Origin: Schmidtea polychroa | Taxonomy: Eukaryota | Assembly: GCA_044892525.1 (NCBI GenBank) | Contig: CM097885.1 | Location: 127,410,001 to 127,474,000 of the forward strand | Reading direction: 5' to 3' | DNA length: 64,000 nt | Translations under genes and position numbers: made by a program | The notes under the pieces: generated by a model | Told to the model about the DNA's origin: nothing | Seen by the model: only the letters and a program-made list of their open reading frames with translations | Databases searched by the model: none | Part shown: positions 1 to 59,008 of the stretch, one piece after another | Layout: each line of letters opens with the position of its first letter | How positions within the stretch are numbered: position 1 is the stretch's first letter

Positions 1-345
1 TGGATAAGTGTCTTTCCTTGTAACTTGATTTAGCTTCCGATAATCTACGCAAAATCGTAAGTCTCCATCTTTTTTCTTAACTATCACTATTGATGAGGAG
101 AATGGTGACGCGCTATCTCGAATTATTCCAAATTCCTTCATTGCTGTAATCTGTCTATCGCTTTCATCTTGATGAACGTAGGGGATTCTGTATGGCTTTA
201 TTTTTATTGGAGTTTCGTCTAATAACGGTATTTCATGCTCAATTACATTGGTTAAACCCAAATCATATTCGTGTTTGGCAAAGATATCTCGGTATTTCCT
301 CAACAGTTTTGTGAATTCCTTTTTCTGCATCTCATTTAAATCATT
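1..345 (-). CDS. Reverse transcriptase N-terminal part, truncated by the window edge
   Basis: [14 protein letters not shown]...HEIPL...PYRIP...[36 protein letters not shown], typical Gypsy RT. Confidence 0.95.
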
Positions 346-3300
346 GCTTACCACTTCAGGCTCCTTATACACCTTGACGTTTCTTGGTATTTTACAATTT
401 GTTTCAATAGACATTTTTGATAATTTTCCCAATTTTGTTTTTGGGTGTAGCTGAACCGGTTTTTTGCTGCTATTCGTTATATGGACTGGTACTATCTGAT
501 TTTCCACTTTGACAACTTCGTCACATATCGGTAAATCATATTTTTCGACTAGCGTTTGATTTGGTTCGAATATAAAATCACCATTATCCACACTCATGGT
601 ATTTGCACAATATACCATCTCCGATTGTGGTGGTATTATCAATGTCTGATTCACAAACACTTCACCTGCCCTGTGAATTATTTCTCCTGTTTCTCCTGCT
701 ATCAAATTACCTGTCTTTAAATCAAGTGAGACTCCGTCCAGCTGCTCTAATATATCCATGCCGATCAGACATCGTACTGGACTTCCCTTCATTATGAGCG
801 CATCGTGCGCTATTATTCGATCTCCAATATGGAATATGACGTTAAGTTGTCCAATTATGTTTAATTCATTTTTTGATAATGACCTCACTATTTCGTCGGT
901 AGGCTTCATTCGCATTTTTTCCTTCGCGTTTAATACATTTTCCGATACTATTGTGTGACTAGATCCCGAATCGACTAAAGCTTCCACTTTATGTTTGTTC
1001 ATTTGTATAAATATTCGGGGTTGCTTTCCTCTTTTTGTTAATGTCATCATTGAGTAGTTGCATGGTAAGCCTAACATATTTTTTCTCTCGATCTCTGCGC
1101 TAGAAGGCTCGATTCTCTCTCCTACCATTCCTTCACATTGTAATGCGATATTTTCCACTGGTTTCATCTCTCGTAATCGATCAACTGGATACACTGGTGC
1201 TGGTTGCATAAATGATTTTGGTATACACAGTTTTGTAAACGTGTCTACGCTACTCGCATTCAACAGTGGCTCTTTTAAGATTTGATAGGTTCTTAACGCT
1301 TCTTTATTCATTCCACTTAGTTCTTGATTGTCAACATATAACGGTGCACTATCACCCTCGTTGTCATTGTCATTGTTCTCGTCCCTTGAAGGGGTTGTAC
1401 TCGCGTAGCTCACCTTTTTCTTCTTTAATATTCGAGCCTTGAGTATCTCCAACTCCTGATATTGATGATGAGTAATGAAGAATCTAGCCAATAATGGTAT
1501 GCAACCAATTACTAGTTTCCACGACCAACCTGTGATCGCATATAATCTGTGTGTTGATAGGACCTGCGATATTATTACTTTGATTACAACACATATTACA
1601 TAAATTCCAATCAATCCGGCACATGCTTGTCCAATGAACATAAACTTTCCCCAGATCTTTTTCATTGTATTATACGTCGCTTTCTTGTAATGATCTGGAG
1701 TTAACAAATACTCATAATTTACCTTCCCACTTCCGCTTGGGAGAATTGTATCTACCATTTCCATTATTACTCTTTCTTTCTTTGATGGAAATAACAAGTT
1801 TCTGCGAGCTTCCTCAATGTCTTCGTTCGAGTAAATTCCACTTTGCGACAATTTTTCTAACGACGTAAAATTTACCAGATATTGTAATTCTGTCAATTCT
1901 AAGTTTTCCGGTGTCTTTACTTCTCGATGATCTGGTAATGCAATCCAAGATTCTGGTGTTAGTCTGTATAATGGTGCTAACAATCTATTGCACTGTAATA
2001 CTTTCGGTTTCGCGTCCTCTTCCAGTAAGATTCGTGTTACAGGCTCCATAAATCGCAACTTTCCATTTAAATTCACTGGTAACTCGTTGGTGCATTGGTC
2101 ATACTTTGTCAGTTTAACTGGTACCGCTTTACATTTATAGCTATATAGTGCTTCACCGAAAATTCTGGCGAACACTCCATTTTCTGCAATTAACATTGGT
2201 GCTACCAAATTAGGATTGGTTATAGCCATTGCCATCCGATTTCGGAGTATTTCTTTGTTGAGATTGCAATCATTTATAATAACTTCTCGGTACACATTTT
2301 CAACAGTATTTTGACCAAAGTGAAATAAATAATCTATTTTGTTATTAAAGTAATTTGTCAACTTAATATCTCCGGCATGTATGTTTGTTTGGGCCTCTGT
2401 AATCATCTTCTGAGATACATATATACCTTTATAATTTGTCTCATAGACACTTTGTCCACACTTTGTTTTAGTTTCTTTTCTCAGGAATCGCATCCCATCT
2501 TCCTCCGAGGTTGACATTAACACTGTTGGAGTATCTTTCATCCGTAGAGGTGTGATTCTTGTTGTTGTACTCGTTGCTGGATCCATTCTTATTTTCTCAG
2601 GCTTTTCCCTGATCTGTTCTCCCGTTATTTCTTTAAAACTCATTGACTTCAATTGCACTAAATTGCACTTTTTGGTATCGACATCGTACACCAAGATTGA
2701 TTCTCCTGTCTGACAGCTAGATTGTTTCATGTTGCAGAATGGATGTGTTTGTAGTTTACCAGTATCATCATCAAATGATCCATCAAATTCTCTTAATTCT
2801 GACATGTACTCTTCCACAACCACGGCTTTGTCAATTATAGCATCGTCTACTTTGTATGGCTCGCCTTGGCAATCACCATTCGACTTTATTATCCCTCGCA
2901 CGGTTACAGTCTCACGGATTTTGTGGTTAAGCTTTGCTTGTAGTTTGAGATCTGCATTGATTTTCAACTGTCCTGTTTGAAAGGCTGCCAAACAATTCTC
3001 TGGAATTATTTCTATCGGTCTAGGTATCGATTGCATTTTCACCATCGATGAGTGACTCCATTTTCCACAATAAAATACAAAAGTAGTTCGTTTCACTGTA
3101 CACTCTCTCACCTTTGCTCGTCGAAATCCCGATTCTTGATATACATAATATTTTACTGGATTTGTCACTTTAAATTTTACTGGATATGCATCCGAACACT
3201 CTGCTACGTTTACCAACGAATATACTCTTCCCATTTCGGTTTGGGAGCAGTCGTATGCCACCAATGAATTCGTCGTGTTTATTATTCCCAATAACATAAT

Positions 3301-6300
3301 AACAGAAATCATCAACCATGGAAATGCGAGTTTTCCCTTTTTCCTCACTGTCTCGGTTTTTGGGCTCTCAGCCTTTTGTATCAAATTTTCCCATCCGCCA
3401 TTGTTTGCGATCCACCTAGCCAAATATTTATTCGTCATTTCCGTAGCTTTCTTTATCAATGATTTTGAACTGTCATTTTCCAGACAACCATAAATACCAA
3501 TCTCCACTATTATATAGGCTAACGCTGTCAATATTACATCTCGATCTAACTCAGTTCGTGTTAGGTCCTCAATCACTGCTTCCTCACAAAATTCCTTTTC
3601 TTCATAATTTCTTTTAATTATCGACGGTAATCTCCTCTTTAATTCCGTTGCCAATCTTTTTACAACTCTTTCCTCCCCCTCCGAAGTATCATCTTCTGTT
3701 TCAGTTTCATCTAACAAGTACAATTCCGTAACTAAACTTTTTAATATTCGTTCAGTCTCGTTTGATTCATCTAAACGCTCAGTTTCGCTCGATTTATCTA
3801 AACTCAAAGATTCAATTTCCGCATCATTCTGTTTTTTCCGACATATCGCAATGTCATTTTTCGTTTCAACGAAGTTCTCTTCGCTCTTCATCTCATCTAT
3901 GCTCGGTAGTACCCTATTATCGGTGCTCATTTCCTCGATATCCCTTGCAACTTCATTTTCCGATCCCATTTCCTCATTTTCCATTGTTTCTAATCTCTGC
4001 AATTCATTAATTTCTTGATCAATTTCTCCTGGGTCATCTACAACTTCAGTTTTAATCTCCACATTATTATTATCCATTTCCTCATATAGAGGCCAAAACG
4101 GTACTATTACCGCATCTCTTTCCATTTCATCACTTTGTTTTGTTGCGTACACATTATTAATACAATTTGGGTTACATCCGTAGTTTAATAAATATTCGTC
4201 ATCATCCAATTCTCGTCCTTTGAACGTCAACACGATAATTCCTTCATTACCTAATATCTCCGCTGCTTTTTGTCGTATTTTCTTTGCTTTTACACTCCAA
4301 TGTTCCTGATAATATTCAATCCTTTGATCCGCAATATTTAACGCTATTATCAAAGACTTCGCACTATCGTCTGCCGCCTCATAATCATGTCCTAGTTTTC
4401 GGATTACCTCTTTTAGTTTTGCCTGATAACTCGTCGGTTTATTCGTATACGGTACGATGCATTCAAACAACCCTTCTTTCATGTCTCGATCCATTTCGAT
4501 GCTCATTATGAAGTCGATACTCGCATTAATTTTATCTCTATTCCCTGCATACAGGGTATCTTGTAAATCTGCTAGAATCTTTTCCCAATTTTGTCTGTCT
4601 GAATTCAAAGTATTAACAGCATTAATAACATTTACTTTATTTTTCCAGCCTGGTATCAGACCGCAATCTACTAAGTACTCTTCGTCTTCCAGACATCGAT
4701 TTTCGAATTTTAATTGCACTTGCCATCCACTGTATTGACGCAGTATTCGCTCCTTTAACTCTCTGATTTGTCCGTAGGCGTTTAAACGGAATTGGCACTT
4801 CACATTATCAAGTCCCGTCGTTTCCACTATGATATCAGCTAAATCCCTTGTTGACCGTAAAGCCTTGCCAAACCTTTGCATTTGTTTAAGTATCTCATCG
4901 TCTCTGTTTCCTTTGAATAACTTTGCACATAAATTTATGGCTCTCTTTAGTTCGCTTTGGGTTAGTGACATCACACTGAGTTCTGCGATCCATCGTTTCA
5001 ACTGGGAGTTGTCAGTTTCCATTTTCTCAAGCCATTTTTCAACTCGGGCTAACAGTGCAGTTGGATTCTCATCTGAAGCGATATTTCGCACTTTCGTGGC
5101 AGGTTTTCCCTCACCTTCTGACACGGTTCCAATTATCATATGAGATTCAGTTTCCTCATCTGATTCAAATTTCGCCACTAGTTTGTTTAGCTTCTGTCGC
5201 ATTTCTCGAAATTCCTTTTCCATTTTGTCTTGAAATTCCTCTCTCTGAGCATATGTCATGTTACTGGTGTTTGGCATATCTTCTTGGAATCTGATTGATT
5301 TCTTTAAGATAGGTCTGCTGAATCTTTCTGAGTTCCTTGGGCATGATCGCGCCATGTGGCCGTATCCCTTGCACGAATGACATTGGATCTGTCCATTTGT
5401 ATTCACTTTGTCCCTTTGTGGTGAAGGTGACGTTGACGATGACCTTGATCTGGTAAAACAGTTTCTGCTAATATGCCCTTTCTTTCCGCATCGATAGCAT
5501 TCGACATCACTGCTGATCCGCCTGTTTTCTGTGAATCTCTTGTTAGGGCTGGGATTTTTCCCATATTTGAACCAACATTGATTTGAGTAGTGTCCAGACT
5601 TTTTGCAATGTTCGCATTGAGGATTATTTACCTGTCCATTTGATTGTACGTTCATGGCTGATCTACTGGCTTGAAATCTATTATTTGGTCTCAAAATTGG
5701 ACTACTGATCTGATTTATTTTCTTTTCATCCCATGGTGCTCTCACAGGCGTAATTGATCGCTCACGTCTCTCCACATTAACTCCAAAAGCATCTGATCTT
5801 TTTGCACTTTTTAAATTCAGCTCTATCTTCATGGCTTTCTTCACGAGCTCATCAAAATTGGAAAAATCCACATAACATAGGGCTTTTTTGATTTCGGAGT
5901 GGACTCCGGTTATAAACTGATCTTCTAATAGCTCTTTAACCTGCTTGGCCATATCTGCTTGGTCTGGTTTAACTTCAAAGGCTTTATCTGCTAAAGTGGT
6001 CAGATGATAAGCAAACTCACTGACCGATTCATCTGGACCTTGAACTCGATTATAAAATTTCTGTCGCATGATTCTTTTGATATCTCCACCAACCAGTTTC
6101 AGTGCCATTGCATCCTTCAATTATGTCCAATCATTGCCAACATTTCGTTTGTCGACTTGCTGCCAGGCTTCTCTTGCCGCACCTTTCAGATAGAGTGGGA
6201 ATCTCTGAACCATAATGGCTTGTGTCCATCCGTATGCTGAGGCGTACATATAATAATCTCCCATGAAATCTGCAAATTCAACAGGGTCTCCTCCATATTG

Positions 6301-6378
6301 ATTGACGGGTAATTTCTGGCAACTTGCGAAATCAATCATCTCTCTATTGAGAGGCATCACAGCATTATCATTTGCCAT
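1..6378 (-). CDS. Single Gag-cargo-Env-Pol polyprotein frame, 2126 codons in window, open at the window edge, one in-frame TAA at 6121-6123
   Basis: Every triplet in the frame 6120 to 1 was checked and no stop was found (2040 codons). ATG at 6378 (MANDNAVMP); next ATG after the stop at 6108. Missing from the ORF track because it has no stop inside the window. Confidence 0.95.
720..1035 (-). CDS. Retropepsin-type aspartic protease domain
   Basis: [15 protein letters not shown] (catalytic Asp codon 970-972) and downstream [11 protein letters not shown]. Confidence 0.92.
1470..3264 (-). CDS. env: Chuvirus-like (Jingchuvirales-type) envelope fusion glycoprotein, about 600 aa
   Basis: Starts LVAYDCS after a signal-like segment. 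Contains [85 protein letters not shown] and the membrane region [30 protein letters not shown]...YAITGWSW. Motif order matches chuvirus-like glycoproteins as I remember them. Confidence 0.88.
3265..3756 (-). CDS. Bcl-2-family-like domain plus C-terminal hydrophobic anchor/signal segment
   Basis: BH2-like [14 protein letters not shown] (WIANNGGW at 3391-3414; Bcl-2 has LHTWIQDNGGWDAF). Upstream [30 protein letters not shown] sits at BH1/alpha5 spacing but lacks NWGR. A BH4-like helix [15 protein letters not shown] and an acidic loop precede it; hydrophobic [17 protein letters not shown] follows. Confidence 0.7.
4141..4353 (-). CDS. Ubiquitin-like domain 2 within the polyprotein (71 aa)
   Basis: LIIALNI...[14 protein letters not shown]...[20 protein letters not shown] matches the ubiquitin [19 protein letters not shown] signature and resembles domain 1. 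No Gly-Gly. Confidence 0.6.
4621..4836 (-). CDS. Ubiquitin-like domain 1 within the polyprotein (72 aa)
   Basis: DIIVETTG...[10 protein letters not shown]...[22 protein letters not shown] aligns by eye with ubiquitin QIFVKTLTG...TIENVKAKI...[22 protein letters not shown]. No C-terminal Gly-Gly. Confidence 0.65.
5341..6378 (-). CDS. gag: Gag region: capsid-like domain plus three CCHC zinc knuckles
   Basis: Capsid-like [11 protein letters not shown]...[13 protein letters not shown] and [16 protein letters not shown]...QFITG. Knuckles [14 protein letters not shown] (5575-5616), [14 protein letters not shown] (5458-5499), [14 protein letters not shown] (5341-5382). Confidence 0.92.
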
Positions 6379-6611
6379 TTGGACTTGTTTCTGACTTCTG
6401 AGGTTGTATCGGTTCACTTTGAGCTAAACTTCAAACGTTAAACAATAATTTAAAATTACTTTTCAACTTCTTTTAAATCTCCCAATAATAGCCTTTTATA
6501 ATCTCGTTAACACTATTTTCAAACTTCTAAGCCGACTTTCACTCACGTCAGTACTAATTCTTTTTATAATTCCTTTTTCACTAGCTTTCAATAATTTCCC
6601 TCCGACTTTCA

Positions 6612-6629
6612 ATCACGTCGGGCTCACCA
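6612..6629 (-). promoter_or_regulatory. Primer-binding site complementary to the 3' end of tRNA-Trp
   Basis: Minus strand TGGTGAGCCCGACGTGAT. The plus strand reads ATCACGTCGGGCTCACCA versus the metazoan tRNA-Trp 3' end ATCACGTCGGGGTCACCA (one mismatch, reference from memory). Confidence 0.85.
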
Positions 6630-6636
6630 GAATATA

Positions 6637-7696
6637 TGTTGGGTTTTGGGTTATTTCTAGTCGGTTCTCTCTGACTCCTGGTGTTCTTTAAATTAAAACA
6701 ATGAACGACCCAACGTATATTGAAACAACAAGTTCACAATTTATTATCACGCTACAATTACCAATCAAAGTTTTATACGATTCTCCGCTCGGCGTTGATG
6801 CTTTGCCAACAAACAATATTCACCTTTTGTTCCTTTAGTTCTCCCGACTCTCTTTTTCCTCGGTTTCTCTTTGGTTTGATCCCTTTCTGCCTTTCCGTAT
6901 TCTTAATTCTATTTCTTCTTTTCCCTACTTCCCTAAATTCGTTTTTTACCTCTCGACTATTCTCGATTCTTCTTACCCTACCTGAGGCAAAATGCCGATT
7001 TTCTCTGATTTTCCCTTTGCTTATATACTCCTCGAAATCAGGATGACAAATGGTTATTGCCGAGCCAATCTTTCGTTTGACATTTGCTCCTACGTATTTG
7101 CTTCGGCTGTCACCCATAATGGTCCAACGAATCCAGATAATTAATGGCCCTATCGATCTTCCTACGCGCGCTATCTTCTCCTTACTCTTTTCCCATTAAT
7201 CATTGTGTCAAGCTAATGGGCCCAAATCTTCCTTTTGTTTGCCTTTCTTCTTGTTTACCCAGCTCGGGTTTCCTCTATCTCTCGGGTTCTCCATTGGCTC
7301 GGGTTTCCCATTAGCTCGGGTTTTCCATTAGCCAATTAATTAATTAATTAACGTTTTCTGTTTTCATACATTTGAATGTTTTTCGACCCTTCCTAACCAT
7401 TTTCTGATAAATCTCTAATCATCATCTTGTTGACCATTAGCTAATCTATACCTGTCCCGTTTTTCCCATTCGATTTCGATGATTTTTCCATTTATTGATT
7501 TTTCTCGGATTTCCGGATTCTCGCCTTTCGTAATTGCTTTTTGCATTTTCTAATACTGTTTCCATCACACTTTCCTTTACTATTGATTCTGTACACGATC
7601 CCGCTTTTATTTGCCTTTTTTCCTCGCTTACTTTCCATTTGAATTATTATCCTAAATTTTATTTAAATTTTTAATTTTAATTTACAGACCTCAACA
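6637..7696 (-). repeat. 5' LTR, about 1060 bp
   Basis: Termini TGTTG...CAACA directly upstream of the PBS. TATAAAA at 6777-6771, AATAAA at 6745-6740, four ACCCGAG-core repeats at about 7260-7335. The second LTR is outside the window, so the boundaries are inferred. Confidence 0.75.
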
Positions 7697-13000: not shown

Positions 13001-16000
13001 CGGAATTATATTAAATTATATTAAATATCACAAAACTATAATATTTGACGTATAGATAAAGATTTTGGCACATTTAATATATATTTTGATGCATTTTTGT
13101 TTTTATTATTTTTGGATTTATTGGTAGTTCAGAATTTCCAACCGCCGTTCCAAGTTTTGCCTAAAGTTTTTCTTACCGAAATATTAATAAAGCTCAGAAT
13201 TTCAGAATATTTTAATATTTTGATTTTCAAATTTATATAATTTTTTAATTATGAAGATTATCTTAGGAAAGGAAACTAATGATACAGAATTAGAACCAAT
13301 AGAAAAAGGTTAGTAAAATATTTTATATCATTTAAAATTAATTTATAAACTAATTTTATTAACAAATTAGTTTTGATCATGGGACAGGGTACATTTTCTG
13401 AATCAATGTTTCCAAATCTATTTTTAAGGGACGCTTGATGATTTAAATCAAATACACCATGAATTGATCTACAAAGAATTAGTGGTTTTATATTTAAAAT
13501 TATTTGACTTTTTTAGATTTCAAAACTATCAAATAAAAAAAATAGTGAAATAAATCTTTCAAAAATAAAATAATATAAAAACTTCACTATGATACACAAA
13601 AAGAAAGATCTAAAAATATAAATAACCAAAACCGAATAATAAGTAAAAATTTATTAAAATGTGCAAAGGAGTTCCTTTACAAATCCAATTCTAGAAAAAT
13701 TCGAAATTTTATTATGCGAATTTTTATTTTAATTATCGGTAATATAAATCAAGAATTCTGATTAAAAACGGTAATTTATAAACTAAAAAATCCTAATCAA
13801 TTCATATTACATAAATTTTATAAATTTACAATTTATTTAGTTATAAAATTAGTAATAAAAAATTCAGCTCAAAAATATCCCACACAACACAAATTATTTT
13901 AATAATAAGGAAATCTAATTTATACAAAATATTAATGTTGTTCCTAAAATATTTCAGTAATCACAACAATAAATACATAATTCGTTTGTTTTATTTTGTA
14001 TTTTGTCTCCTTATACTCGTACGATGTGATTTCTCTAATAAATAAACAAAAATTCGTAAATCGAATTTATTTTTGTAAACAGAGACTGTGAATGTTTTTC
14101 TAAATTACTTCGTAAAAAGAGTGTAAATAATTAATTCATAAAAGAAATCAATTTAATTTAAAAAAAATTTCTGAGTTTAACAGCCATAGTGACAAGCTAA
14201 GTGACAAGCTAATAATTAAATTTCATTGGATTTATTCATCTCATGGAAGAAAAACTTCATTTATGAAAGACAGATTGAAGAAAGATCCCTATAAAATAAG
14301 CAAATCACAATATTTAGCTGCCATAACAGATACCACTGAAAATAGCTCAAATATCTTAAGAAGTTTTCAAAAACTGTGATCATCTTTTTATAAATTCAAA
14401 TGTGTTAATATTTTTGAAAATATGTTACAATGAGTCAACTCAGAAAATGTGAAGTACAAAAACGAGCAGCATTTAAAATACGAAACGAGGATCAAGTCTA
14501 ATTAGATACAAATTTAATAATAAAAGATAACTGAATATTTTACTAATAGTGAATTTAGAAATCTATTTTTACATTACTATAGACATATTTTACATTTACT
14601 TTCTAGTGGATATAATAAATATTTTAATTTTTCAATTATAGTTAGTTTAACTTATTACACGTGGCTGTAGACACACGTGTAGTATACAAATATTGTTTAC
14701 TTTTCATTAATAGATCTTTTGACATATTGTTATTTAATCTTGTTACATGGTAACCACGCTTTCAAACCAAAAAATTGAATGGGAATCCTGCCACAGTTGA
14801 AAAAATATTCCATTGGAGATGATCTAAAGGCAATTTATGTTGAAGATTAAATGTTATTTCTCAATAATTCAATTGGCCAACATCCAATAAAAATGAATTT
14901 TCGGAACATATTTGAATGAACCTTGTCGAAACAAATTTGACCAAATTCACTATGAAGAAGACCATATGAAAATTATTAACATATCTTCTAAATTATTTTT
15001 TAAATCCGGTTCAAAAGTTAATAATAATTCCAAGTATTTATTATATGACAGGGGTGCCCATAAGGTCGATCGCGATCTACCGGTAGATCGCGAAGGATTT
15101 TTTAGTAGATCTTCATAAAAAAAATATTTTTTATATAAATTTAGATTTTATATAAAATTTCTGTTTTATGCTTAAATTTTTTGCCAATTTTCATGTTCTG
15201 TGTTCCATTTCTATGGTAATACTAAATAACATTTTTTAATTTTGATTTCACCATTTCCAAAATGTTATTTAGTTTAATTTAGTTTAATTTAATTTTGTTT
15301 ATTTAGTTAAATTTAATTTTGGTTGGTGTAACAAAGTGAAAAATTTTCTTAAGCTTTTTTGTTAAATTAATTTTGTTTAAAAATGCTAAATAAAAAAATG
15401 CTAAATAAAAAAATGCTAAATAAAAAAACCAAGACTTATCATTATAGCGAAGAAATGGAGAAGGAGTACTTTTTTGTAATGATTAAAGGTAAATGTTGTT
15501 GCTTAATTTGTAAAGCTACTATTTCATTACCAAAAAGAGGGAATTTGAAAAGGCATTTCAAGACAATTCATAAGACTTTTGCAGTTGATTATCCACTTGA
15601 CAGTGAACTACGCAAGTCTAAAATCATGGAACTGAAAACATGCATTTCTTTTCAACAGTCATTTTTTACGAAGCTAACATCCAAATCAAAGTCAGCTACA
15701 GCTGCATCTTTCCGAGTAAGCTACATTCTGGCAAAAAATAAGAAATCTTTTAGTGATGGAGTAATTGTAAAAGAAGCATTTTTAGAAGCGGCAGAATCAT
15801 TATTTTGTGATTTTAAAAATAAATCAGATATAATTTCTGCTATTACTGATATGCAATTGTCCCGTAATACAGTTACACGGAGAGTCCAAGAAATAAGTTC
15901 CAATTTAAAAAATCAGTTAATGTTAGACAAAGAAAATTGTACCGCATTTTCATTGCAAGCAGACGAATCAACTGATGCGGCTGATATTTCGCAGCTTATA

Positions 16001-19000
16001 ATTTTTATTCGAATGGTCTTTAAAGATTTTTCTACGAAGGAAGAATTATTAACAATTATACCACTCAAAAGTAAAACTCGAGGTGAGGATATATTTCAGA
16101 ATTTTAAAGCTTATGCCAACAGCATTCAGCTCCAAATTTGTAAGCTTGTATCAATAGCAACAGATGGCGCACCAGCTATGACAGGGCGTCACAACGGATT
16201 TATAGCATATTGTAGGAATGATTGATTTTGAATTTGATTTCCTAAGTTACATTTTTTTATAATAAATAGTTATATACTTTAATTTTCCATATTTTGACAT
16301 ATATTTGTTTTATTGTGATGAATTTATTGCATTGTAGGTAAATATTATGTAAGTATTAAAAAAGTAGATCGCATGCACATTTTGGATGTGAATGTAGCTC
16401 TCCTAGAAAAATTAGTGGGTACCCCTGTTATATGACATATTGTATAATTTTAAACAAATTTTCCACGTTGAATAAAATATTTTCAAAACCATTTATCAAA
16501 TTTTCAATATTTAAAATATATATATTTAAAAATTTTAGATTAATGAAACTTCTTTTCTAAAAAGCTATTTTAATTTTTAATTTAAAAATTTCAACTTATA
16601 AAATCCAATTTAAAAATTATTTAAAAGTTATTTTAATAGTCAATTATTTACAATTTAAAATTATTTTGATAAATCATTGAAATATTTAACTCTCAGCTGA
16701 AAACATCTCACAATAGATATTACAAAAATAAATTTACAGTAATTTTTTAATAAATTTATAAATAAATTTACGACAAAAAATTTGTATATAAAGAATTAAT
16801 TTCACACTGATTAAATCAAGCTTTTATTTATTCTTCTGTAAATATTTTAGAAATAGAAAAACAATTAGAAAAGTGCAAAGGTAATTAAATATTTATCTTA
16901 ATTATATTAATTTTGAGAATTTGTTCAAAATTTTTCAAAATGATTTTTATTAATAATTTGCCCAATGAACAATCATTGTATCATTTCTAGTCTTGTAAAT
17001 ATATTTTGTGTTGCAATATATATCATTGTAAACAACTTGGGCACCTGCAACATTACAATAAAGGAAATTATCTTCACATGGTTGTTCGTATCGTTAATGT
17101 TAGAAGATTTGGAAATAATTAAAATTATAGAATTAAAATACTTTTGGAATTACACAAAATATATGAAATAAAAATATTTAAAAAATTATAAATTATCAAA
17201 ATTAATTACAAAAAGTAAAAATAAATATTTTTCCGGGGGGGGGGCGTGGTAGACGAATGAAGTTTCAAAGGCGTATAAAATAATTTTAAGTTATGATTTG
17301 ATTTTTAGAAGATGATACCCATCGGGTATTTACCCAGTTCTGTGAAATTCAATTTAATGAAAATATCGTTATTCTGTTGCGATTTGTTTTAATTATTTAA
17401 TTGCTGAACCCGAGGAGTCAGGATGAAAGCAAAGTTCCTATTGACAATTTTTTTTAATATCAAAACAATACTATACCATAGGAAACAATATTTATAGAAT
17501 ACATATAGATGTATTAAAAAAAGATAAGTAATAATTTACAAAATAAAATTCTGTGACATAACTAATGATTCTGACTAACAAATGCAAACTCCAAAAATAT
17601 TTATTTTATCAATTTATTAATTTATAATTTGTCATAATTTTGTGACATTGGCAATATAATTCGTAATAATTTATTGTTTATAACTATTTAATATTCCTAA
17701 TTATATATAGATAGTGATTTTATATTGGAAAGTTTTGAGAGGATAATTATAAAAAACGATTGTTTCTTGATAACATAGTTAAATCAACTACAGAAAATCT
17801 TTAATTTACCTCTCCCCGAAATAAAAATAATACTTCAATATTATGACAATAATTATTTTATAAATAAAAAATCTCAAATCACTTCAAGTGCTTTAACAGC
17901 TTTGAAACTGCACAACAGCTACTTATATTTTTTATTTTTGTGATAAAACTAACAGTTATTATGCATGAATTTTGCTGACCAAATTATGAAATTTTGTNNN
18001 NNNNNNNNNNNNNNNNNNNNNNNNNNNNNNNNNNNNNNNNNNNNNNNNNNNNNNNNNNNNNNNNNNNNNNNNNNNNNNNNNNNNNNNNNNNNNNNNNNNN
18101 NNNNNNNNNNNNNNNNNNNNNNNNNNNNNNNNNNNNNNNNNNNNNNNNNNNNNNNNNNNNNNNNNNNNNNNNNNNNNNNNNNNNNNNNATTGGAAAAAGC
18201 AGAAAAGTTGATAATTTTCAACCGACGACATACATAATAAACCCTTCTTCCTTCAACATCAGAAATGCTGAAAATTGCAATCAAATTAAAATAGCAATTG
18301 CTAATTGGACATTAGAAAGTAGAAAATTGTTTTTGAACAACAAATAATATTGACAATTAACGCCCCTGCCACTTAAGATGAAGAATAATAAAAGTTTTTC
18401 TATACAAACTAAGATTTTCCTCAGTCAAACCACCCAAAAAATTTCTAATCTAAGAAGAATTGTAAATTCAGTAGCTGATAATTACAATACAAATTAAACT
18501 CTAATTCCTGTACTTATAATTATTGTTATTAAGTAAAAACTTTTCAAACCAGTATTTGTGTTGCTATATATATATATAACATCCTGGACAAAGAATTAAT
18601 TATATCAAGTTATTAGTTCCATAACAAGCTTACATACAAATATATTTCCTAGTCATACTTATCAAATTGTCATGAGTTTGCTACATGTCAAAATCTTTTT
18701 ATATTATCATTTCATAAGATCCATTTAGTAACCTTTCCCATGTTATTTCAACTAAAAACTAAAGCAGTTTGTCAATTGAAATAACCTGATTGTCAAATGT
18801 CACAGATATTAAAATTTGTCACATTTGGTCAGTACAATGTCCACGATTATGTGGAAATAAATGCTTTGTGGTTTCAATAGTTGTTATTATATTATTTTCA
18901 ACTTTAGATACCAGAAAGCATTAAATACATGTTGGTATTGGTGGCTTAAATATGATATATTGATATAAATTTCTGCAATAAAATTAATTTTAATGTGAAA

Positions 19001-56583: not shown

Positions 56584-59008
56584 CACGTTGACTGCCATAT
56601 GCCCGCCCGCAGTACACAGTACATTTTTATACATATGCCACGTGTAGCGCCGGCGGTACATACTACTGAATAATCATGTTTTTCTTGTGGCAGTGGGCTT
56701 AAACTGTTTATTTATATACAGTGGCACCTTGATAAAAGTAAATTAAGGTTTTTTTGTTATGGTTTACATCTACATTTAGAGGTATAGCTGGAACAAAATG
56801 GAGAAAAACGAAAAGATTACAAACATAAAAATTTTATTTCAAACATTAAAATTCATTTATTTGTATTATAAAAATTAACAAAACAAAAGAAAACTTCGGT
56901 ATACATATATGAAATATAATAAAATATAATATAAAATAAAAAAATTAATGTAATTTATTAAAGCAATTTGTGCATAATGGCGGATTATCCTCACATCCAC
57001 TGCAAAAAGTTGTAACTCTTTTGGTTTTTTTTGTTGCTTCTTCTCGTCCTTTCTGCTGTTGCAATTGTTTGTAGCATTCAACACACCTTTTACGTATAAT
57101 TCTATTTCGGTTGTCTCTGGTGGTATACGTTTGTATTAAATGCCGTCTAGCTGGGGGACGTTGTTCTACAACGGATACTGACGAAATTGATGTTTCGCAA
57201 AGGGATTCACAAATAGATTTTCTGAATTCAGCTATTTTTATATTTGGTTTACTTAGTTTGTATAAAATAAGCGCGTTTACAACGGCTGTACTAAGAAGGT
57301 ACTCAAATGCTATCTTATGGTACCAGCGAATAGTTCTGCGTAAAGGCGTAAAATAGCTAGCCATCTGGTCAGATAAATCGATACCTGATTTGGCAAAATT
57401 ATAATCAATTATCATTTGAAGCTTTATGATATCTTTATTGTTGCGATTTGTTTTGCCAGTTCGAACTTCTGTTAGGTCGTGCTTTGTGATCAACATAAGA
57501 ACTTCTCGCTTGTCCCTCCATTTAGCTGCTACAATGCCTGAATTCTTTCGACCTATAACTTCATGCTTTCGGAGTTTAGCATTAGTGACTTCAATAGGAT
57601 TACCAATTCGGTTTTTCCTAAGAGTTCCCAGAAGATGAGTTTGCTGTGTTATCAAGGCATTAGCTAACGACCTAGACGTGTAGAAATTATCAGTAACAAC
57701 AGTTCTACCGTTATTTAGATAAGGCGCAGCCAGATCGAGTACAATCTGAGTGCTATGTGTAACACCTGGTGTTGGTCGTCCTCTTCTAGCCGAATCATCT
57801 GTTTTTCCGCAATAAATTTCACTTGTATAGGTGTACCCAATTGGATAATCACAAAAGCTTGTAAACTTTAACACCATATTTATGTGCTTTTCCGGGATTA
57901 TATTGACGAAACATCAGTCTTCCACGCCAAGGTATCATCTCTCATCCACAACCAACAGCTCACCTGGTATTTTAGCAGCTATAAAATTTTTTTCCAGGAG
58001 TTCAAGCAAATAGGCAACTTTACCCAAACGATTATTTTGTATGGTATCGTCATCTGCAAAATGAATAAATTTCAGCAATAATTGGAATCTATTTCGGGAC
58101 ATCTGTCTAGGAACAAATGAGTTTAGGTAAAAGTTATCCTTGCTCCAGTACATATCAATTGTTGGATAGGTCACTATTCCCATGTACATAACTATGCCAA
58201 GAAATCTTTTTATCTATGAAACATTTGTATCGGTCCACTTTTTCATGCGTGAACTGCGGCTTATACGACTATTGGAAATTTTTTTATATGCATTCAGATT
58301 TGTTTGTTGAACTATAAGGTCATATATGTCAGATGAAACCATAATATTGAAAATGTCAATCGGCTTGATGGAGCTTGTATCTAGGTGACTAATTCCAGGA
58401 GAAGCAGCAACTGCAGTCAACGTAAATTTATGCAATGTGTTGCCGCTAACTGTGTTCCATACTTTTCTTGTAATTGTGGGTGTAGGTATATCACTACAGT
58501 CATCTGATACTGAAACATCGGAGACATCGACATCATCAACATCTGTGCTACTAATTGATGGAATATACTCATCCGAATCTGATCGGTCGAAGTCGGCCTC
58601 TTCGGAGTCAGAACTATACACCACTTTTTTACGTTTTCCGTAAAATAATTTTGGATTAATACCTGCCATAATTACTACAGGGATACTTTTATATACCACT
58701 ATCTAACACACACAATATCTTTCCACTTATCACTATAAATATAAAACAGTATAAAATAAAACCTTACTATAACTAAACCTTACTATAACTAATTATGCAA
58801 TCAATGATAATTAGAGACTGTGAATTATACCACAAAACATTTTTTTTCAAAAAGATAAAAAATAACCTGTGTACAGCCGGCGCCACACGCGGCACATAAT
58901 GAAAACGGTATTTACTAGGTGCCGCGTGTACCGCCGGCTGCCACAGTTTATAATGTACTACGGCACCGTAGGAATGTAGTATTTATATATATGGTGGCAG
59001 TCAACGTG
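56584..59008 (-). mobile_element. piggyBac transposon, 2425 bp
   Basis: Perfect 14-bp TIR CACGTTGACTGCCA at both ends; flanks TTAA (left) and TTGA (right); GC-rich subterminal GCCGGC repeats. Confidence 0.93.
56945..58699 (-). pseudogene. PGBD4-like piggyBac transposase, frameshifted into three pieces
   Basis: Acidic N-terminus, MSRNRFQLLLKFIHF, LVVDE, VVTDNFYTS, GTLRKNR, GIDLSDQM and C-terminal Cys-rich RCVEC...TFCSGCEDNPPLCTNCFNKLH. Confidence 0.92.

Follow-up and report, generated by a model that had tools for sequence, protein, structure and literature searches.

A stretch of 64,000 nucleotides from Schmidtea polychroa (assembly GCA_044892525.1, contig CM097885.1, positions 127,410,001 to 127,474,000; the window) holds the 5' part of a gypsy-type long terminal repeat (LTR) retroelement, which is 17,310 bp long, lies on the minus strand, takes up the first 7.7 kb of the window and continues beyond its left edge (Table 1). 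The element encodes in a single frame, in this order, Gag, a ubiquitin-like (UBL) region, a Bcl-2 fold, a chuvirus-like glycoprotein (G), the protease, reverse transcriptase, RNase H and integrase of Pol (PR-RT-RH-IN) and a post-integrase module, and there is no frameshift between Gag and Pol. Pfam matches along the frame come in the same order, i.e., zinc knuckles, a weak ubiquitin-like match, a weak Bcl-2 match, PF24664, protease, RT, RNase H and integrase. The whole open reading frame (ORF) has about 3,330 codons, 3,235 of which are open beyond an in-frame stop in gag.

The copy is a young, gypsy-type GAG-ENV-POL retroelement. It has the features of Ty3/gypsy elements (Metaviridae), namely TG...CA LTRs, a target duplication and the order PR-RT-RH-IN, and its placement rests on the Pfam domains and on its G being nearly identical to that of a published gypsy element (see below). 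Among 993 candidates in the genome, all 40 scored matches to the G region were 99–100% identical, and 8 of 68 scored G matches sit in an open frame of 3334 codons, one of these eight carrying a flagged TGA within the match. The genome also contains two sister families that share this layout, with G ectodomains 69–70% identical to that of the window element; a search with P0003 across 60 scored places found no further family. The linkers between the domains are open and in frame in the three families of the genome and in database relatives.

Table 1. Features of the retroelement, in the order in which they are encoded
Feature	Position	Strand	Remarks
5' LTR	6637..7696	-	1060 bp, TG...CA; 0 mismatches vs 3' LTR (left of window); 4-bp target duplication GATC
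gag start and capsid region	5806..6378	-	first Met 6378-6376; in-frame stop 6121-6123
Three CCHC zinc knuckles	5311..5628	-	Pfam zf-CCHC E 3.5e-09; three motifs read
Ubiquitin-like domain (weak)	4657..4830	-	Pfam PF00240 E 0.0035, below cut-off
Bcl-2-fold domain (predicted)	3364..3780	-	BH2-like GGW kept; Pfam and AlphaFold model
Internal signal sequence of G (predicted)	3265..3345	-	RKKGK (basic n-region), then a hydrophobic core and NTTNS (polar c-region); cleavage predicted at TNS/LVA, alternatively at LVA/YDC
Chuvirus-like glycoprotein ectodomain	1645..3264	-	Pfam PF24664; class III fold of gB type (predicted)
Predicted transmembrane helix of G (helix 1)	1582..1644	-	best 19-residue Kyte-Doolittle mean 2.64
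Helix 2, weakly hydrophobic	1474..1545	-	Kyte-Doolittle mean 1.38; conserved Gly turn, Lys/Arg, Cys, Pro; predicted on cytosolic face, not crossing
Aspartic protease (PR)	733..1026	-	Pfam; Asp at 970-972
RT start	1..81	-	RT-RH-IN continue in same frame left of window
Post-integrase signal-ectodomain-transmembrane module (predicted)	L001:6416-7606 (left of window)	-	same frame as IN

The first-pass annotation took this arrangement to be unusual, whereas an Env inside the polyprotein, between Bcl-2 and PR, has already been described in planarians (PMC6431247). Since the gene order is published it is no discovery, and what remains useful is a testable model of processing. The planarian Burro elements, reported in 2019, carry Gag with three CCHC knuckles and Ubi/SUMO-like, BCL2-like, Env and PR domains in one frame; they were described as the first case of an in-frame env between gag and pol, and their Env matches mononegavirus fusion proteins (PMC6431247). 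The window element shares the one-frame Gag-UBL-BCL2-Env-PR layout with Burro and GYPSM1, its own UBL match being below the cut-off. It is unlike Burro1, which exceeds 30 kb and has an ORF1 of 4,873 amino acids with MATH, BIR and ankyrin domains (PMC6431247), in being 17.3 kb long with about 3,330 codons, and no MATH, BIR or ankyrin Pfam match was found in it at E 0.01, nor at E 1 in its first 2,040 amino acids. Where Burro-like elements have a dUTPase-like domain, between PR and RT, the window element has a block of about 105 amino acids that is conserved (44–57% identity to the sister families) and has no Pfam match.

GAG-ENV-POL elements with a gB-type ENV have been reported in Nematoda, Bryozoa and Platyhelminthes (PMC13524379), and the window element agrees with errantiviruses of this kind, whose ENV is of the type of herpes simplex virus (HSV) glycoprotein B (gB), in having ENV between GAG and POL and a predicted gB-type ectodomain fold. 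The G segment printed for Smed_errantivirus_2 in the supplement of that paper differs from the window G, by eye, at 4 of 251 residues, a closeness that points to a planarian host; the GAG-ENV-POL order is shared and both elements exist in many near-identical copies (215 in PMC13524379). As far as these sources were available, signal peptides and topology are not discussed in the Burro section of PMC6431247, the main text of PMC13524379 has no mention of Bcl, splicing, fibronectin, fused or in-frame and no passage on polyprotein topology or a post-integrase membrane protein, and no mention of a transmembrane segment or signal peptide was found in PMC10084718 and PMC7642597.

That G is chuvirus-like, with a predicted gB-like class III fold, as first proposed, is supported. 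The match to PF24664 (E 9.2e-94) is far past chance, 10 cysteines of the ectodomain are at least 90% conserved among 113 aligned sequences, and the AlphaFold model built on these has a mean predicted local distance difference test score (pLDDT) of 85.3. In Foldseek the best PDB match of the model was HSV-1 gB (E 1.7e-14) and the best viral match a chu-like glycoprotein (E 2.3e-42). The ectodomain is predicted from this model to have a gB-type class III fold, with putative fusion activity. In a quick tree of 60 of the 154 homologous sequences, 14 polyprotein-borne G fell on one side of a branch and the 46 others, one of them joined to DUF5641, on the other (SH-aLRT, the approximate likelihood ratio support, 100); the tree is unrooted and points to no donor virus. 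The BEL/Pao elements that were initially offered as a parallel are the wrong comparison and were rejected: the window element is a gypsy-type GAG-ENV-POL element, it has no DUF5641 match, unlike P0077, and its G lies on a separate branch. Anakin elements carry the same glycoprotein family on an LTR element, but on a Pao backbone (PMC7642597).

Upstream of G, exactly where the first-pass annotation had placed it, a hydrophobic segment of 22 residues (3330-3265) is directly followed by LVAYDC (3264-3247), both on the minus strand. A YDC-like anchor was located in 118 of the 154 sequences, and 82 stand-alone homologues were picked from the 154 by a Met start, a length of 500-800 and the motif at 14-45. 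In these the distance from the Met to the Tyr of YDC has a median of 23 residues, which places the motif behind a typical signal peptide, and the -1/-3 rule is obeyed at the site equivalent to TNS/LVA in 62 of 82, compared with 0–24 of 82 when six other offsets are taken. The G polyproteins examined also retain the pattern of small residues at -1/-3. The segment is less faithful to Bcl-2. A Bcl-2 profile, built from four Bcl-2-like segments, matched 6 of the 19 upstream regions, 3 of these six being seeds, and 8 polyproteins with PR after G lacked a profile match and kept the segment, with a Kyte-Doolittle (KD) mean of at least 1.3 in seven and a Met-rich sequence, by eye, in the eighth. The BH2 Trp and the YDC Tyr are 46 residues apart in the window element and 50–80 apart in six relatives, while the spacing between the segment and YDC is constant. 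Because its distribution tracks G and not Bcl-2, the segment is most simply read as a signal, and it is likely to be G's own signal peptide and not a captured Bcl-2 tail. A C-terminal anchor belonging to the Bcl-2 gene itself, as in tail-anchored Bcl-2 proteins, was not found; the segment goes with G. After cleavage it may nevertheless stay behind as the C-terminal anchor of the Gag-UBL-Bcl-2 piece.

The Bcl-2 domain is itself a prediction. Its Pfam match is weak on its own (E 0.018, below the cut-off), and the first 146 residues of the AlphaFold model matched Bcl-2 family chains with a best Z of 12.5 (root mean square deviation 3.1, 133 residues aligned); helical bundles may reach a high Z by chance, which is offset by ranks 1–18 all being Bcl-2 family. 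The canonical BH1 motif of Bcl-2 proteins, NWGR, is not present; the equivalent place reads ELDRDV and differs again in relatives.

Beyond the G ectodomain there are two hydrophobic peaks before PR-RT, as had been noticed at the outset (helices 1 and 2 in Table 1), and an odd number of passes here would return PR to the cytosol. From 126 aligned C-terminal segments 109 were scored, of which 14 came from polyproteins and 95 from other homologues. Helix 1 reached a KD mean of at least 1.6 in all 14 polyproteins and in 86 of the 95 others, whereas for helix 2 the counts were 1 of 14 and 12 of 95. Helix 2 of the polyproteins carries a Gly turn (14/14), a Pro (14/14) and, in most, Lys or Arg flanking the core on both sides; its median KD of 1.38 is marginal rather than polar. 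In the structural model a turn separates a long helix from a second, kinked one. As one strong and one weak helix follow G, Pol is likely to be cytosolic, with a single pass after G bringing PR back, a judgement that leans on hydropathy.

A second membrane module follows IN. It consists of a signal-like segment, a predicted beta-sandwich ectodomain of about 310 residues with four sequons, a strong transmembrane helix and a short tail, which ends in ETRL in the window element and in ETWV and ETFV in the sister families, resembling PDZ-motif-like C-terminal tails. In each of the 5 relatives reaching beyond IN, three of them from the database, at least two hydrophobic segments lie in this part. 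The ectodomain is 37–40% identical between the families of the genome and keeps one NGT sequon in all three. In two pairs free of saturation the ratio of nonsynonymous to synonymous substitutions (dN/dS) was 0.26 and 0.15, and by this measure the ectodomain is under purifying selection; for most domains dS is saturated when the window family is compared with its sisters. No homologue was found at E 0.001 among 2646 and 1979 candidates, the region has no Pfam match, and BLAST of the three local families against P0011, P0015 or P0020 gave no match (best E 0.054). An FN3 assignment came from the Atlas (0.88 and 0.93, below 170 shared features, where recognition is low), and only the third beta-sandwich of the model matched solved chains, with Z up to 8.2, which chance often yields; the FN3-like nature of the ectodomain is a lead, not a result. 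Prediction of a complex between G and this ectodomain scored 0.00 and gave no answer. If the post-integrase domain is lumenal, Pol is by parity cytosolic, in agreement with the hydropathy. No description of a post-integrase membrane protein was found in the flatworm GAG-ENV-POL and Burro literature, coverage of which was partial, so that an earlier description is possible; within this coverage the module is a new addition to the published layout. An internally deleted family-2 copy (L003 with L004) has PR joined in frame to the end of IN and the post-integrase module, and thereby keeps G and both membrane modules without RT-RH.

From these observations we infer that the one-frame polyprotein, from Gag and the Bcl-2 fold through G and Pol to the post-integrase module, probably crosses the membrane of the endoplasmic reticulum four times. 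G's own signal, now internal, would send G to the lumen, and signal peptidase would likely cut at TNS/LVA, leaving Gag-UBL-Bcl-2 anchored by the signal. This resembles the junction between core and E1 in hepatitis C virus (HCV), where the envelope protein is exported by an internal signal that remains with the upstream core protein as its anchor (PMC5402940); the likeness is one of working and no homology is claimed. A single transmembrane helix would bring the chain back to the cytosol, with helix 2 likely on the cytosolic face, so that PR-RT-RH-IN would be a loop in the cytosol with an anchor at each end. A second internal signal past IN, probably also followed by a signal-peptidase cut, would export the FN3-like ectodomain, and the last helix would leave a short cytosolic tail. 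Gag and Pol would then be anchored side by side at a shared patch of membrane next to the envelope proteins, both to be released by the element's protease during maturation. The anchoring role of Bcl-2 would be a by-product of its position upstream of G's signal, not its origin. The topology proposed in the first-pass annotation (cytosolic Gag-UBL-Bcl2, lumenal G, cytosolic Pol) holds in outline by hydropathy and by the signal position and -1/-3 pattern of the segment, and it omitted the post-integrase membrane module. The Env of Atlas virus is likewise in one frame with Gag and Pol, and again no homology is claimed; it is of class II and C-terminal, whereas in the window element the fusogen precedes Pol, which has a predicted membrane anchor on either side (PMC9094657).

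Several observations weigh against this model. The topology is drawn from KD means and not from SignalP or DeepTMHMM. The central helix of the Bcl-2 fold has a higher KD mean (2.15) than the signal segment (1.99), and only the structural model puts it inside the bundle; the helix that precedes the transmembrane helix of G is basic on its presumed lumenal side. The A/YDC site obeys the -1/-3 rule in 70 of 82 stand-alone homologues, above the favoured site; cleavage ahead of G is well supported by the residue pattern, at one or other of these two sites, the five-residue c-region probably favouring TNS/LVA. The Bcl-2-negative polyproteins P0011 and P0013 begin only about 155–165 residues before G, so a Bcl-2 domain could lie further upstream, and with so short an upstream sequence they are weakened as evidence. 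P0020 has three hydrophobic peaks after IN and its parity is not clean, and the model of the post-integrase region is poor (mean pLDDT 47.7). The window copy itself has the in-frame stop in gag although both its LTRs are identical.

The claim, part of the first-pass annotation, that the segment derives from a host Bcl-2 gene, which was captured and whose tail anchor now serves as G's signal peptide, appears highly unlikely. The position of the segment in the window copy, about 25 residues past the BH2-like motif with basic residues ahead of it, is similar to the spacing of cellular Bcl-2 anchors, but the segment equally precedes YDC in stand-alone G proteins and in the eight Bcl-2-negative G-PR polyproteins, and it is the spacing to BH2 that varies. 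A different course would be that the signal is uncleaved or cleaved slowly, so that Gag, G and Pol are separated only once the element's protease acts, which would keep Pol tied to Gag for packaging. There is precedent, as gB-type ectodomains have on their two sides either a signal peptide and a transmembrane domain or a pair of transmembrane domains (PMC13524379), and HCV buds without core-E1 cleavage, the particles being non-infectious (PMC5402940). The small-residue pattern kept in the polyproteins and the polar c-region after the core speak for cleavage and make this unlikely.

The weak second helix allows a further reading, in which it crosses the membrane in a fraction of chains and Pol that reaches the lumen is degraded, lowering Pol relative to Gag and G without a frameshift. 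The element indeed has no Gag-Pol frameshift, helix 2 is marginal and not polar, the block of transmembrane helix and helix 2 is more conserved among the sister families than the G ectodomain (79% vs 69–70%), and in alphavirus E2 a marginal second helix has mixed topology. The same helix is, however, found in stand-alone G without Pol, where its conservation needs no role in lowering Pol, and it contains Lys/Arg and an invariant Pro; we regard this as rather improbable. It is also conceivable, at long odds, that spliced RNAs make Gag-Pol without G and that the membrane-threaded polyprotein is a minor product, as many LTR elements set their product ratios by splicing. Open, in-frame linkers in three families and in database relatives go against such splicing without excluding it. 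Of 24 sequencing runs listed, 18 hold part of the stretch and none is on record as RNA; the joints 243-413, 2201-2237 and 6324-6369 seen in contigs of four of these runs do not skip G, and as contigs drop rare forms they are uninformative on splicing.

If the four-pass model holds, it bears on how Pol is packaged. Most LTR elements bring Pol into the capsid by fusing it to Gag; if signal peptidase cuts before G this link is lost and co-localisation at the membrane must replace fusion. It is tempting to speculate, although the case is somewhat doubtful, that one four-pass polyprotein yields a two-protein envelope, made up of a gB-type fusogen encoded ahead of Pol and an FN3-like surface protein encoded past integrase, the latter a possible attachment protein or receptor decoy with a PDZ-motif-like tail in three families, and that Pol is packaged because both its ends are held at the membrane and not by fusion to Gag. 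A post-integrase surface protein would, if true, be a second envelope component beside a class III fusogen in a retroelement, and would matter for the choice of target cells by elements that are abundant and young in a highly regenerative animal.

Some minor observations may be added. Past its in-frame stop, gag is 77–84% identical to the sister families. A second conserved block at about 4111-4353 (45% identity to the sister families) resembles a ubiquitin-like domain by eye and is possibly a second UBL. A candidate primer-binding site (6611-6636) starts with TGG eight bases past the LTR end and does not adjoin it. In several database relatives (P0011, P0012, P0013, P0019 and P0010) G is followed by two or three domains resembling aspartic proteases, and P0011 carries a further one behind IN. 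In a sister family (L003:768-2225, minus strand) a frame of 486 codons past the polyprotein stop shows DEDDh-exonuclease-like motifs by eye, with no matching Pfam hit, and in a family-3 copy (L015/L016) the polyprotein continues in frame into a related sequence. Elsewhere in the AT-rich window there are stop-to-stop frames at 15371-16225 (plus strand, 284 codons) and 56945-57913 (minus strand, 322 codons).

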